59,688 nt of DNA, from assembly GCA_039587445.1 (NCBI GenBank), contig JBDHIM010000004.1, positions 1 to 59,688 of the forward strand, in the 5' to 3' direction. This stretch comes from Gemmatimonadota bacterium (GTDB lineage Bacteria; Gemmatimonadota; Gemmatimonadetes; Palauibacterales; Palauibacteraceae). Below, piece after piece: positions 51,831 through 57,787 of the stretch. Within the stretch, counting starts at the first letter, position 1. The number at the start of each line of letters is the position of its first letter. Under the pieces are notes generated by a model. The model was not told the origin of the DNA. It saw only the letters and a list, made by a program, of their open reading frames with translations, and did not search any database. The translations under genes were made by a program, and so were the position numbers.

Positions 51831-52217
51831 ATGCAGGGATGTCCGTTTTGCGAGCTGCCCGAGGATCGGATCCGCATCGAGGGAGAGCACGGTCTCGTCG
51901 TCCGAGACGGCTACCCGGTCGCGGCAGGGCATCTTCTCGTCGTTCCTCGTCGCCATGTCGAGAGCGTCTTCCACCTCTCTCAGCCTGAGCAAGACGAGCT
52001 CTGGGAGCTCACGGCGCGCGCGCGAGGTCTGCTGATTCGGGACGCCCGGCCGGAGGGTTTCACGATCGGCATCAACGACGGCCTCGCCGCCGGCCAGACG
52101 GTGCCTCATGCCCACATCCACGTGATCCCCAGACACATCGGTGACGTGGCGGACCCGACTGGGGGCATCCGGGCGATCGTCAGCCCGCGGAAGGCGCGCT
52201 ACTGGGAGCATTCCTGA
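51831..52217 (+). CDS. HIT family nucleotide hydrolase
   Basis: CPFC, GHLLVVPRRH, AGQTVPHAHIHVIPR. Confidence 0.93.
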   Translation: MQGCPFCELPEDRIRIEGEHGLVVRDGYPVAAGHLLVVPRRHVESVFHLSQPEQDELWELTARARGLLIRDARPEGFTIGINDGLAAGQTVPHAHIHVIPRHIGDVADPTGGIRAIVSPRKARYWEHS

Positions 52218-53860: not shown

Positions 53861-54625
53861 ATGGCGACACGGGGCAGCGGCGAGCCGATGATCGACCTGA
53901 CTATCGATGGGCGGGCGGTCCAGGTCCCGCCGGGGGCGACGATTTGGGAAGCGGCCCGGTTGCTGGGTATTGATCTTCCGGTCCTCTGTCACGACCCGAG
54001 GCTGGAGCCCGTCGGCGTATGTCGATTGTGCCTCGTGGAGGTCGGCGAGCCCAAGCTGACGGCCGCCTGCATCCGGGGCGCGGAGGACGGGATGGAGGTG
54101 CGCACGTCCTCGGAGCGGCTCGTGGCCTGCAGGCGTGGCCTGGTGGAGCTCCTCCTGTCGGACTACCCGGTCGACGCTTCGGGCCTTCCCAAGACGGGGT
54201 CGGATGCCCTGGTTGAGTTGGCGTCAGAGTTGGACGCGGATTGGCCCGCTCGACGTCGGAGCGACGAGGCGGGCGTGGCGCCGGGATCGCAGACCGTGCC
54301 AGCGGGCGGGATTCCGGCCGGCGACGGCCGACCGCTCGACCACACGTCGAAGGTGATCTTCGTCGACCACCAGGCGTGCATCCTATGCGACCGCTGCATC
54401 CGCGGCTGCGACGACCTGCAGGTCAACGAGGTCATGGGCCGCACCGGAAAGGGCTACCAGACGCGGATCGCCTTCGATCTGGACGTGCCGATGGGAGAGA
54501 GCACCTGCGTATCCTGCGGGGAGTGCGAAAAGGTCTGTCCGACCGGCGCCCTGTCGCTCCGGGGATGGGAGGAGCCGTCAGAAGATGCGACCGAGCCGGG
54601 CAACGTCGGCTGGGAGGTCCTGTGA
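53861..54625 (+). CDS. Fe-S subunit equivalent to the N-terminal domains of FdsA/NuoG
   Basis: LCH...CRLC...AAC 2Fe-2S ligands; CILCDRCIRGC and CVSCGECEKVCP 4Fe-4S motifs; acidic C-terminal tail. Confidence 0.9.
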   Translation: MATRGSGEPMIDLTIDGRAVQVPPGATIWEAARLLGIDLPVLCHDPRLEPVGVCRLCLVEVGEPKLTAACIRGAEDGMEVRTSSERLVACRRGLVELLLSDYPVDASGLPKTGSDALVELASELDADWPARRRSDEAGVAPGSQTVPAGGIPAGDGRPLDHTSKVIFVDHQACILCDRCIRGCDDLQVNEVMGRTGKGYQTRIAFDLDVPMGESTCVSCGECEKVCPTGALSLRGWEEPSEDATEPGNVGWEVL

Positions 54626-56931
54626 CCACCACGACGCTGCTCGGCGAGCTGAAAAAACGCGGCGTGAAGGTGCGCCGGAAAGGTGAACGGCTACTGCTCA
54701 GCGATCTGCACGGTGCTCTGACGCCGGAGCTTCGAGCGGCGATCGACGCGCACCGCGAGGAGCTGCTCGCGACGCTCGACGGGGCCGAGCGATCGACGGT
54801 GAGCTCCGTCGACTCGGTCTGTCCGTACTGCGGTGTGGGGTGTGCGATCCGGTATGTCGTGGACGAGGCGGAGAACCGGATCCGGTACGCCGATGGTCGG
54901 GAGAGTCCGGTCAATCACGAGCGCCTGTGCGTGAAGGGGAGGTTCGGGTTCGACTACACGAGCCATCCCGAGAGACTGCAGGCCCCACTGATCCGGAAAG
55001 AGTCCTCCTACCCGAAGGGGCCGCTCTCCACGGAGGTGCGCGGCGAGCGCAAGCGGCGACCCGGTGGGCTCGTCGACTACGACGAAGTGCTGCCACACTT
55101 CCGCGAGGCGACGTGGGAGGAGGCGCTGGATCTCGCGGCGTCGCGGCTCGTCGAGATTCGTGACCGAGACGGATCCGGCGCGCTCGCCGGCTTCGGTAGC
55201 GCGAAGTGCAGCAACGAGGAGGCTTATCTGTTTCAGAAGCTGGTGCGTGCGGCGTTCGGGACGAACAACGTCGACCATTGCACGCGGCTATGTCATGCCT
55301 CTTCGGTCGCCGCCCTCCTCGAGACGATCGGCTCGGGGGCGGTCACGAACGTCTTCGGCGACGTGCGAAACGCGGACGTCGCGTTGATTGCCGGTTCCAA
55401 CACGACCGGCAACCACCCGGTCGCGGCCACCTTCATCAAGCAGGCGCGTAAGAGCGGGCGCACCAAGCTCATCGTCGTCGAGCCGCGACGGATCGAGATG
55501 GCCGACCACGCGGACTACTTCCTCCAGATCAACTCCGGCACCGACGTCGCGCTCTACAACTCCTGGATGCACGTCCTGATCGAGGAGGGTCTCATCGACG
55601 AGGCGTACATCGCGGAGCGCACCGAGGGCTTCGAGGCACTGAAGGCCGTGGTGGAGGGCTACTCCCCGGAGGTCGCCGCGGGGATCTGCGGGGTGGAGCC
55701 GCGCCTGATCAGGGAGGCGGCACGCACCTTCGGCCGCGCGGAGCGGGCGATGGTCTTCTGGGGCATGGGCATCTCGCAGCATACGCATGGCACGGACAAC
55801 GCCAGGTGCCTCATATCTCTCGCCCTGATGACCGGAAACATAGGCCGCGAGGGCACCGGGCTTCATCCGCTGCGCGGACAGAACAACGTCCAGGGGGCGT
55901 CCGACGCCGGCGTCATCCCGATGGTTTACCCCGACTACCAGAGCGTCGCGGATCCGGCGGTACGCGAGAGGTTCGAGCAGGCCTGGGGCGTGGAGCTTGA
56001 CCCGCAGCCGGGTCTCACGGTGGTCGAGATCATGGGTGGGGCGCTCGACGGCGTGATCAGGGGCATGTACATGATGGGAGAGAACCCCTTCCTTTCAGAT
56101 CCCAACGTAAACAAGGTGCGCAAGGCTCTTGCGAACCTCGAGTTCCTTGTCGTCCAGGACATCTTCCTCACCGAGACCGCCGAGTTCGCCGATGTGATCC
56201 TCCCCGCGACCAGCTTTTTCGAGAAAAGCGGCACGTACACCAACACCGACCGTCGCGTGCAGGTGGGTCGCAAGGCTCTGCAGCCGCCGGGCGGAGCTCG
56301 TACCGATTGGGAGATCACGTGTGAGATCGGTGCCCGGATGGGCTATCCGATGGATTACGGCTCGCCCGAAGATGTGTTCTCGGAGTTCACCGCCCTCGCT
56401 CCCTCGTATGCCGGGCTCACCTACGACAACCTCGGGCTGACCGGAAAGCTGTGGCCGTGCCCGGATCCGAGCGAAGACGGCATCCAGGTTCTGTTCGGAG
56501 ACAGCTTCCCGACGGCTAGCGGCAGGGGGAAGTTCGTGCCCGCCGAGTTCGCGCCGGCGAAGGAGCTACCGGACGAAGAGTATCCGTTCGTGCTCAACAC
56601 GGGTCGGAGACTCGAGCACTGGCACACGGGCACCATGACACGCCGATCGCGCGCACTTCACGCGATCCGGCCGGGGCCGGTGGTCGACATGCATCCCGCG
56701 GACCTGGAGGCTCTCGGGGTGGGGGACGGAGAGCTGGTGGAGGTGGCGTCCCGGCGGGGGTCCATCGTACTGCCCGCCGCGCGCTCGGAGCGCATGCTGC
56801 GCGGCGCCGTGTTCATCCCGTTTCATTTCAGGGAAGCGGCCGCCAACCTGCTGACCATCGATGAGCTTGATCCGGCGGGGAAGATCCCGGAGTACAAGTT
56901 CTGCGCCGTGCGAGTCTCGCCGGCGTCTTGA
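54622..56931 (+). CDS. fdhF: Formate dehydrogenase catalytic (Mo/W-bisPGD) subunit, Cys type, with extra N-terminal domain
   Basis: CPYCGVGC, LCVKGRFG, NNVDHCTRLCHASS, PLRGQNNVQG, NTGR...HWHTGTMTRR, KIPEYK; GTG 54622 overlaps the upstream TGA, GGAGG at 54613-54617. Confidence 0.93.
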   Translation: MTTTTLLGELKKRGVKVRRKGERLLLSDLHGALTPELRAAIDAHREELLATLDGAERSTVSSVDSVCPYCGVGCAIRYVVDEAENRIRYADGRESPVNHERLCVKGRFGFDYTSHPERLQAPLIRKESSYPKGPLSTEVRGERKRRPGGLVDYDEVLPHFREATWEEALDLAASRLVEIRDRDGSGALAGFGSAKCSNEEAYLFQKLVRAAFGTNNVDHCTRLCHASSVAALLETIGSGAVTNVFGDVRNADVALIAGSNTTGNHPVAATFIKQARKSGRTKLIVVEPRRIEMADHADYFLQINSGTDVALYNSWMHVLIEEGLIDEAYIAERTEGFEALKAVVEGYSPEVAAGICGVEPRLIREAARTFGRAERAMVFWGMGISQHTHGTDNARCLISLALMTGNIGREGTGLHPLRGQNNVQGASDAGVIPMVYPDYQSVADPAVRERFEQAWGVELDPQPGLTVVEIMGGALDGVIRGMYMMGENPFLSDPNVNKVRKALANLEFLVVQDIFLTETAEFADVILPATSFFEKSGTYTNTDRRVQVGRKALQPPGGARTDWEITCEIGARMGYPMDYGSPEDVFSEFTALAPSYAGLTYDNLGLTGKLWPCPDPSEDGIQVLFGDSFPTASGRGKFVPAEFAPAKELPDEEYPFVLNTGRRLEHWHTGTMTRRSRALHAIRPGPVVDMHPADLEALGVGDGELVEVASRRGSIVLPAARSERMLRGAVFIPFHFREAAANLLTIDELDPAGKIPEYKFCAVRVSPAS

Positions 56932-56941
56932 GCGCAGGCGT

Positions 56942-57787
56942 CTATTCCGTGGGCGAAGAGGATTCGCCGATGGAGGAGAACGCCCGTTGCGCGAGCGCCG
57001 TCAACGTCTGAGGAGGCAGGTCTCCGACCAGGGCGTGCTCGAAGACGGCGTCCCGCCAGCTGACGATGCTGATCCCCCGCTCCGACGACGAGCGAAACTC
57101 AGGCTCCCCGACGACCGGCGCTTCGCGCGTCGGTACGCGGTAATGGGCAATCGTGTGCTCGCCGATGGCGTATTCGACCATCGCCGCCTGCCGGTCCTCC
57201 AGCAGGCACACCATCGCGCGCGTCACCCGGCCCTCAACCAGCGTGACGGGGCGTACGCCGACGCCCATCTCCTGCAGGAAGAAGCGCGAGACCGCGGCCG
57301 GGTCCGGCGAATGGATGGCGTGGTCCTGGACGGCCCGGTTCAAGTAGTCCTGCGCGTAGGCCTCCCGGATATCACCAGGGGCGCTCGTGCGAACGATCGC
57401 CCCGGCTGCCAGAAGAACGAGGACGGCGGCAGCGACCGCCGTGCCCTCTCGGCGAACGCGCGCGGGAAGGCGCGTCAGTCGAAGAACATCGCCCGCTTCC
57501 AGCGGCTCGTGCCGCGATCCCGTTCCGCTCCCCGCCGCTTCGAGTCTCGCCTCGCGAGCGATCGCTTCGCGGATTTTCTTGCGCAGGCTCTCAGGCGCAC
57601 GCGCTCCCGTTCCATAGGTGGACACGGCGCGGACCAATGCCGCGTCCCGGGCGAAGAACTCGCGGCATTCGGCGCAGTGGCCCAGGTGCATGCGAGCCGC
57701 TTCATCCTCCTCCGAGTACGCTCTCGGCTGTTCCAGGGGCCAAAGCGTCTCTCGCACCGCCTCGCAGTTCAGGGCGTCGCGATACAC
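56942..57787 (-). CDS. Zinc-finger anti-sigma factor-like membrane protein
   Basis: N-terminal Cys and HLGHCAEC (HxxxCxxC), single TM segment, extracytoplasmic C-terminal domain. Confidence 0.72.
   Translation of the reverse strand: MYRDALNCEAVRETLWPLEQPRAYSEEDEAARMHLGHCAECREFFARDAALVRAVSTYGTGARAPESLRKKIREAIAREARLEAAGSGTGSRHEPLEAGDVLRLTRLPARVRREGTAVAAAVLVLLAAGAIVRTSAPGDIREAYAQDYLNRAVQDHAIHSPDPAAVSRFFLQEMGVGVRPVTLVEGRVTRAMVCLLEDRQAAMVEYAIGEHTIAHYRVPTREAPVVGEPEFRSSSERGISIVSWRDAVFEHALVGDLPPQTLTALAQRAFSSIGESSSPTE

Follow-up and report, generated by a model that had tools for sequence, protein, structure and literature searches.

What is a docking domain of the kind that links the subunits of non-ribosomal peptide synthetases (NRPS) and polyketide synthases (PKS) doing at the front of a formate dehydrogenase? 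The question is posed by fdhA, a gene in a window of 59,688 bp (the whole stretch of DNA analysed here; contig JBDHIM010000004.1, positions 1 to 59,688) from a Gemmatimonadota bacterium with a genome of 3.19 Mb that is 88.8% complete. The original prediction, made from the letters of the window alone, held that the alpha subunit of this formate dehydrogenase (FDH) had been split into an iron-sulfur (Fe-S) protein and a catalytic subunit, FdhA, and that a basic docking domain on the latter and an acidic tail on the former now bring the two halves together. Our analysis supports this interpretation of the split and its docking pair; that the tail binds the domain is proposed by analogy with characterised pairs.

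The junction between the two genes is arranged as had been described. The open reading frame (ORF) at 53861-54625 (+ strand), which encodes the Fe-S subunit, extends past its last Cys motif and terminates as ...CPTGALSLRGWEEPSEDATEPGNVGWEVL-TGA, and fdhA begins at GTG 54622, inside the upstream stop, as a GTGA overlap, which implies translational coupling. Read from this start, FdhA begins (M)TTTTLLGELKKRGVKVRRKGERLLLSDLHGALTPELRAAIDAHREELLATLDG, continues with AERSTVSSVDSV and reaches CPYCGVGC at 54820, confirming the reported extension ahead of that motif. The start is further supported by the homologues, because their frames reach only 5 (L013) or 17 (L011) residues upstream of a conserved M-T-T/A-x-T-L-L.

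Identity and distribution of the docking domain

Residues 1-54 of FdhA are a true member of the TubC_N family by sequence and by fold. Against the TubC_N profile PF18563, with its curated cut-off of 26 bits, whole FdhA scored 37.6 bits (E 2.5e-9) and residues 1-58 alone 43.0 bits (E 4.9e-11), and a six-frame search of the genome returned the FdhA domain, at 41.7 bits, as its sole TubC_N. When all PDB sequences were searched with phmmer, four chains only were matched, all of them beta-hairpin docking domains (EpoB 5t7z, AerJ 8aqq, TubC 2jug and Bamb_5915 6cgo), and the four alignments run without gaps across about 50 residues. An AlphaFold2 model of the domain, computed from a 58-row alignment with a predicted local distance difference test (pLDDT) score of 79.5, has helices at 3-12, 35-43 and 45-58 and strands at 16-20 and 23-27, giving a predicted order of alpha-beta-beta-alpha-alpha. 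Its ten top Foldseek matches in the PDB are all docking domains, from EpoB, Bamb_5915, TubC, AerJ and Kj12A/B/C, with a query TM-score (TMq) of 0.75-0.82 and a root-mean-square deviation of 0.8-2.0 A, except for TubC 2jug (0.52 and 3.4 A); the Foldseek E-values, limited by the small size of the domain, lie only between 1e-3 and 0.2. The likeness to TubC_N pointed out in the original prediction was thus borne out by the profile score, the PDB sequence matches and the Foldseek matches alike. The domain stands at the front of the subunit encoded downstream, with 12 linker residues between it and the catalytic part; linkers between beta-hairpin docking domains (betaHD) and catalytic domains are put at about 20 residues in the available text of a review (PMC9113145).

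A phmmer search with the 58 residues against 1.84 billion representative sequences gave 79 matches, most of them short fragments, among which TubC_N was labelled in 78, Condensation in 12, Molybdop_Fe4S4 in 2 and Zn_ribbon families in 2; after two FDH fragments, the closest neighbours were 36-59% identical. Precomputed Pfam labels in the protein database already place PF18563 on FdhA-type proteins. As far as we found, this architecture is visible in databases and is not discussed in the literature: full-text searches, with subscription journals mostly outside their coverage, found nothing tying TubC_N or betaHD to formate dehydrogenases or other primary-metabolism enzymes, and one on Gemmatimonadota and FdsA gave general FDH papers only. 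The suggestion that a use outside secondary metabolism was undescribed agrees with the literature searched. Four proteins of 297-729 residues (P0115, P0120, P0122 and P0125) combine TubC_N with the HEAT-repeat families PF13646, PF03130 and PF02985 and carry no NRPS domain; they are a possible second setting for TubC_N outside assembly lines.

The two halves of the enzyme are usually one polypeptide, as had been stated. FDH loci taken from 30 genomes of the same order fall into 13 split ones (L002-L014, from genera g1, g6 and g7), with the Fe-S and molybdenum (Mo) parts in different frames and the Fe-S match ending at the first base of FdhA, and 17 fused ones (L015-L031), with both parts in one frame. 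The docking domain is present in 13/13 split loci and in none of the 17 fused relatives, where the match to FdhA is delayed until about residue 46-63, and further still in one frameshifted locus; a Pfam scan of two fused proteins listed Fer2_4, Fer4, Molybdop_Fe4S4, Molybdopterin and Molydop_binding, and did not find TubC_N. A scan of metagenomes for further split loci, in which Mo-domain patterns dominated, yielded no new docking-domain locus among the 80 FDH loci kept, and these served us as a control set. In 79 of them the two parts are fused, with 20-31 residues from the ferredoxin CP to the first Mo-domain Cys, the motif being broken in the remaining one (L080). A docking-domain hidden Markov model (HMM) built here, which matched the positive controls L002, L013 and L053 and did not match the fused L021, found none of the 80 at E<=1. 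Restriction of the domain to split FDHs, on which the original prediction could be judged, was therefore observed in relatives and metagenomic homologues alike.

Within the family, an FDH-type domain was found in 14/114 genomes: in all 12 of g1 (window genome included), in the single genome of g6 and in one of the two of g7. It was not found in 17 other genera, and we use these words, rather than absent, because genome completeness ranges over 70-98%. Where genomes were scanned with PF18563, their FDH docking domains scored 36-43 bits, and the most divergent copies, L013 and L014, still match the window domain, L013 also matching the profile built here. Proteins nearly identical to those of the window came, according to their database sources, from metagenome-assembled genomes of Gemmatimonadota.

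The fission itself can be read in the linker between the last ferredoxin domain and the Mo-domain. Fused loci share a joint of the form ...CPTGALT-(10 to about 30 residues)-L-K-x-V-D-S-V-CPYCG, and the final residues of the linker at positions 55-66 of FdhA (V/L-D-S-V) align with the end of that joint. Split forms carry about 180 bases at the split point that fused forms lack. A comparison of the linker of fused L017 (...CPTGALSLVGLAEALTAPASGAGATPKSGLRAVDSVCPYCG) with its counterpart in L013, which is split (...CPTGALWLAPSSELGAGAATDGWELV-stop, followed by M...LLALLDGGAGMKPLTRVDSVCPYCG), suggests that the old linker survives on either side, the new material running approximately from G-W-E to the end of the docking domain, or about 60 codons; the limits were read by eye, the linkers being too variable for formal alignment. 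A maximum-likelihood tree built from the Mo parts by a quick search, with SH-aLRT as its sole support measure, shows the family as a polytomy made up of L014 (itself split), four fused forms and twelve further split ones. Two changes of the split label are needed on this tree, of which the well-supported branches force only one, and a single origin of the split is compatible with it.

Some loci in this sample deserve mention on their own account. The fused FDH of L027 (G025:C81) has one TGA and one TAG inside the match, and in that of L031 (G038:C23) the frame changes near residue 140; either could be a pseudogene or an error of assembly. In relatives, G035:C45, G020:C24, G013:C27, G012:C116, G014:C242 and G019:C27 encode a second FDH paralogue that is more remote (42-49% identity) and contains exactly one in-frame TGA, consistent with a selenocysteine enzyme.

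The Fe-S tail and the proposed role of the docking domain

We propose that the tail of the Fe-S subunit docks on the betaHD of FdhA and has replaced the covalent linker after gene fission, an explanation that we consider probable on balance. The ancestor would have been a single-chain FdsA-type alpha subunit, with a 2Fe-2S domain, a 2x[4Fe-4S] domain, a linker of about 20-30 residues and a Mo-bisPGD domain, which was split at that linker in one Gemmatimonadota lineage (three genera of one family among the genomes searched). The roughly 180 bases at the split point would supply the W-E-x-(L/V/I) end, the NTGA overlap with its Shine-Dalgarno site and the 54-residue TubC_N domain. The terminal motif of a disordered Fe-S tail would then add a strand to the FdhA hairpin, as in the pairs of short linear motif (SLiM) and betaHD that connect NRPS/PKS subunits, so that a non-covalent tether would stand in for the lost peptide bond and keep the Fe-S relay near the [4Fe-4S] cluster of the Mo-domain. 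Overlapping stop and start codons would give coupled, near-equimolar synthesis, and the Fe-S relay and Mo-domain would assemble 1:1 with the NuoEF-like diaphorase.

In characterised betaHD systems, according to the available text of Hacker 2018 (PMC6195595) and the review (PMC9113145), binding is confined to the five C-terminal residues of the disordered tail, which line up as a strand along beta-2, form two salt bridges and bury the hydrophobic side chains that come first and last; the dissociation constant is 8-100 uM. In our loci, conservation is concentrated at the very end of the tail. The original prediction had stressed its acidic stretch, and this part of the claim did not hold: the stretch is a variable linker of 10-20 residues from CPTGAL(S/T)L to the terminal motif, acidic in the genus of the window. 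Conservation did hold for the last four residues, which read W-E-x-(L/V/I) in 14/14 split genomes. The W is TGG in 14/14 and the E is GAG in 13/14 and GAA in one; position -2 is Val in ten (GTC, GTA, GTT or GTG), Arg in two, Tyr in one and Leu in one; and the final residue is Leu in ten (CTG, TTG, CTA or CTT), Val in three and Ile in one, hence always aliphatic, through six different codons. The genome has 15,674 stop-to-stop frames with 100 codons or more; of these, the Fe-S gene and one Arg-rich frame of 107 codons alone end in WE.[LVI], leaving the Fe-S gene as the sole credible one. Approximate values of the ratio of nonsynonymous to synonymous substitution rates (dN/dS), from ungapped windows, were 0.23 for the last five tail codons and about 1 for the ten codons before them.

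The genus of the window shows a further feature (54560-54622 and L003-L008): at the start of the tail linker stands another G/V/A-W-E (LRGWEEP...), some 15 residues ahead of the terminal GWEVL; it may be an internal copy of the motif or a coincidence. In L009 and L012, a change of tail position -2 from V to R coincides with a change from K to E in strand 1 of the domain. We rejected charge covariation between tail and strand 1, as V or L tails can likewise go with E at this site (L013 and L014) and the lineages are too few.

Could the domain be an artefact of annotation, with fdhA translated only from beyond it (for example from the GTG in ...STVSS...) and the TubC_N-like frame never made? An in-frame GTG does lie near 54808, and DNA as GC-rich as this has many long open frames that are spurious. 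We nevertheless regard this explanation as scarcely credible. In a protein-guided codon alignment, from which our main dN/dS figures are taken, the docking domain has a dN/dS of 0.235 (53 codons, 78/78 pairs), the linker immediately after it 0.86 (11 codons) and the Mo part 0.129 (679 codons), and from the contrast with the adjacent linker it follows that the domain is translated and under purifying selection, as the original prediction presupposed. Its sequence is conserved at the protein level in 14 genomes and matches a curated profile and known structures, and a start codon with an NTGA overlap and an upstream Shine-Dalgarno site precedes it in 14/14 loci. The same selection bears on the idea of a passenger domain, by which a piece of an NRPS gene boundary entered the linker and split the gene, and the domain stayed on without a docking role, for instance as a folding or solubility cap, with the halves joining through their old interface. 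In fused FdsA-type enzymes the Fe-S and Mo parts do form one compact unit, and other bacteria have split FDH/Fe-S arrangements that are not known to carry docking domains. However, a passenger would hardly be expected to keep its low dN/dS beside a relaxed linker across three genera, to score still 36-43 bits against PF18563, with even the divergent L013 and L014 recognisable, or to be accompanied by a tail end conserved at the protein level, and we therefore judge it very unlikely.

A functional domain might also have a partner other than the Fe-S tail, serving in FdhA dimerisation or recruiting a maturation factor or NuoEF, with W-E-x-phi (phi, hydrophobic) kept for the ribosome-binding site and the stop/start overlap. 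The codons TGGGAG(G) lie 4-5 bases before the start of fdhA, at a distance where this genome has an excess of GGAG/GAGG (240 per 4-base bin at -12 to -9, with a background of about 95, upstream of 1517 long frames), and the preference for GAG at the tail Glu would suit such a site. Dimerisation has a precedent as well: in the available text of Hacker 2018 (PMC6195595), the N-terminal docking domain of TubC dimerises through an interface that overlaps with the Kj12 peptide-binding site. Against this stand the final residue, which is always aliphatic in spite of its six codons, and the Val at -2, which close relatives encode by four synonymous codons for which a ribosome-binding site offers no reason; both indicate selection on the peptide that such a site leaves unexplained. 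One locus has, moreover, the Glu codon GAA and hence a weaker Shine-Dalgarno site. Nor did other candidates emerge for the docking partner, since the NuoEF protein ends ...SVEAPG, unlike a docking tail, and a genome-wide scan of C-terminal motifs found [DE][DE]-phi-x-phi ends only on SSB, a zf-HC2 anti-sigma protein and unassigned frames, which are unrelated in context and were rejected. On this evidence, a partner other than the Fe-S tail seems unlikely.

Several points nonetheless weigh against docking of the Fe-S tail on FdhA as the explanation of this locus. The invariance of W-E may in part reflect selection on RNA, because the TGGGAG(G) codons form the Shine-Dalgarno site; W-E-x-phi is out of register with the commonest NRPS tails found here (E-E-phi-x-phi) and with Kj12B, whose tail is given as L-R-G-E-I in the accessible part of PMC6195595. 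In the tree, the split forms make up no supported clade, appearing instead as two lineages that share a polytomy with the four closest fused forms. Finally, a tether may be unneeded, because the Fe-S and Mo parts of fused enzymes already pack together. Structure prediction was neutral on the matter: a complex of the domain (58 rows) with the last 40 residues of the Fe-S subunit (13 rows), run without controls, gave scores of 0.04 and 0.02 relative to a mark of 0.32, and a model of the Fe-S subunit from 11 sequences had a mean pLDDT of 45.2, too poor to judge disorder of the tail.

NRPS junctions and a possible origin of the split

We sought counterparts of this junction elsewhere in the phylum, where TubC_N is found in 27/301 genomes. 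The 28 frames with TubC_N that are not FDHs comprise 16 with Condensation, 9 with Thioesterase and 3 small proteins with no other domain. The frame upstream of these junctions typically ends in a short acidic/hydrophobic motif, such as REEIAL, REEIEL, REEVPL, VEEFEV, HWEVLTL, VWEEGSL or AWIEGEI (at L052 the tail is of the form W-E-V-L-x-x), and may be the end of a carrier protein; read from the listing, 13/28 tails fit [DE][DE]-phi-x-phi, and TGA overlaps an NTG start at 15/28 junctions. The anatomy of the FDH junction is the same: a short tail motif, a TGA/NTG overlap and a docking domain. In the NRPS loci L032-L057, the acidic core R-E-E of the tail, typically GAGGAG, sits at the expected Shine-Dalgarno position for the next gene, and co-encoding of tail motif and ribosome-binding site may be general. 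Six bases can serve both purposes, in FDH and NRPS junctions alike. Two small frames in this set, L048 (G275:C12) and L055 (G334:C15), of about 99-118 residues, join TubC_N to a Cys-rich, zinc-ribbon-like end; the frame upstream of L048 has a canonical tail, DDDREEVPL, with a TGA/ATG overlap, and several short phmmer matches look alike.

This shared anatomy suggests that the junction may have come in one piece from an NRPS gene boundary. A possible, if doubtful, scenario is that one copy of such a boundary, about 180 bases long, was inserted in the FDH linker and in a single step produced two coupled genes with a matched docking pair. On this tentative view, the inserted cassette would have brought with it the last few codons of the tail, which also act as a ribosome-binding site, together with the stop/start overlap and the betaHD. 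If this were true, NRPS subunit junctions would be portable modules able to bring about fission of unrelated enzymes in nature, and the present FDH would be the first natural redox enzyme assembled by a docking domain.

Comparison with the known SLiM/betaHD pairs (TubB-TubC, EpoA-EpoB, Kj12A/B/C, Bamb_5917-Bamb_5915 and AerJ) shows that the FdhA domain has their family, fold and size in common. It is likewise N-terminal on the downstream subunit and followed by a short flexible linker, and the upstream partner likewise has a linker with a short acidic/hydrophobic end and a stop/start overlap. The carriers differ: the partners that bear docking domains in the available text of the review (PMC9113145) are C, E, Cy, TE, MT, reductase and halogenase, all of secondary metabolism, whereas FdhA is a primary-metabolism redox enzyme outside that list. 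The FDH, moreover, is not within an NRPS/PKS assembly line, its genome having no other TubC_N, and its tail is W-E-x-phi rather than E-E-phi-x-phi or L-R-G-E-I. Its partner is an Fe-S protein and not a carrier protein; with no substrate to hand over, the tether would position an electron relay.

Fused FdsA of the FdsABG/FdsGBACD type has the same order of cofactor domains and a NuoE/NuoF-like diaphorase partner; in the window, by contrast, two genes encode the alpha subunit, a docking pair is inserted between its halves, and NuoE and NuoF are fused. Naturally split FDH/Fe-S arrangements exist as FdhF with Fe-S subunits of the HylA or HoxU type, where the Mo subunit stands apart from an Fe-S subunit resembling the N-terminal part of NuoG, and we know of no docking domain in them. 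Engineers split megasynthases by inserting SLiM/betaHD docking domains. In one such study, as far as its available text goes, an NRPS polypeptide was cut at a linker and re-associated via an inserted pair of natural docking domains (Kegler and Bode 2020, PMC7496407); the split is of the same kind, whereas the FDH case is natural, concerns an enzyme other than an NRPS and has been kept across three genera.

Here a familiar docking device appears in a setting that is new for it, and the fission event is legible. Docking pairs of this type are regarded as a speciality of NRPS/PKS systems, and here one stands at the natural fission point of a primary-metabolism metalloenzyme that converts CO2 and formate. 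Gene fissions whose molecular event can be read in the sequence are rare, and the fused sister forms provide built-in controls for the split FDH. The case would offer a natural precedent for docking pairs in the assembly of multi-subunit redox enzymes, with a bearing on heterologous production of oxygen-tolerant NAD-linked formate dehydrogenases, and, with a 54-residue domain and a 5-residue tail, it is a small system for testing the portability of docking pairs.

Gene run, cofactor domains and neighbouring frames

Four genes follow one another on the + strand of the window, encoding a HIT-family protein, a NuoE-NuoF fusion, the Fe-S protein and FdhA; their coordinates and those of the junction features are collected in Table 1.

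Table 1. Positions in the window of the genes and junction features of the split formate dehydrogenase.
Feature	Position	Strand	Evidence or remark
HIT-family gene	51831..52217	+	PF01230 HIT, 68.1 bits; ends 3 bases before the NuoEF-like gene
NuoE-NuoF fusion, 540 aa	52221..53843	+	PF01257 2Fe-2S_thioredx, PF01512 Complex1_51K, SLBB, NADH_4Fe-4S
Fe-S subunit, 254 aa (P0002)	53861..54625	+	PF13510 Fer2_4, residues 10-84; Fer4_7, residues 173-230
Acidic variable linker of Fe-S tail, R234-V249, RGWEEPSEDATEPGNV	54560..54607	+	Length and sequence vary among 13 split loci
C-terminal motif G-W-E-V-L-COOH, proposed short linear docking motif	54608..54622	+	Conserved in split loci
GGGAGG, Shine-Dalgarno-like site for fdhA	54612..54617	+	Within the W-E-V codons, 4 bases before the GTG start
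GTGA start/stop overlap	54622..54625	+	NTGA overlap present in 14/14 split loci
FdhA, formate dehydrogenase alpha subunit, 769 residues	54622..56931	+	Passes equivalog TIGR01591
Beta-hairpin docking domain (TubC_N), FdhA residues 1-54	54622..54783	+	PF18563 profile, PDB sequence matches, predicted fold
Linker, FdhA residues 55-66, short and variable	54784..54819	+	Between docking domain and first Cys of the Mo-domain [4Fe-4S] motif
Catalytic Mo/W-bis-PGD part of FdhA	54820..56931	+	TIGR01591 Fdh-alpha, 786.5 bits (cut-off 666.25)

The catalytic part of FdhA matches PF04879, PF00384 and PF01568 (Molybdop_Fe4S4, Molybdopterin and Molydop_binding), and in ...CTRLCHASS... it has a putative active-site Cys-His of the FdhF kind. 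By its Pfam profiles, the Fe-S subunit contains one 2Fe-2S domain and one 2x[4Fe-4S] ferredoxin domain, and it is the counterpart of the N-terminal, NuoG/HoxU-like part of fused FdsA-type enzymes. It differs from NuoG-type proteins in that PF10588, the profile of the His-ligated [4Fe-4S] motif of the NuoG/HoxU type, was undetected in the window subunit and in 2/2 fused relatives tested (L021 and L016). A variable insert lies instead at about residues 104-160, between the 2Fe-2S and 2x[4Fe-4S] domains, with a 30-residue expansion in L014, and one cluster of the usual electron relay may therefore be missing across the whole clade.

The NuoE-NuoF fusion provides the formate dehydrogenase with its NAD(H)/FMN diaphorase module. 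Its NuoE-like and NuoF-like modules make up one protein of 540 residues that scores under the curated NuoF and NuoE equivalog cut-offs; against TIGR01959 (nuoF_fam), for example, it reached 425 bits, under the cut-off of 558. The HIT-family gene may be the first gene of the operon, and a scan for promoters and terminators gave no relevant result. On the opposite strand, an ORF of 281 residues (56942-57787) converges on fdhA; it has no Pfam match at E<=0.001, and its N-terminus has an H-x3-C-x2-C pattern reminiscent of anti-sigma zinc fingers.

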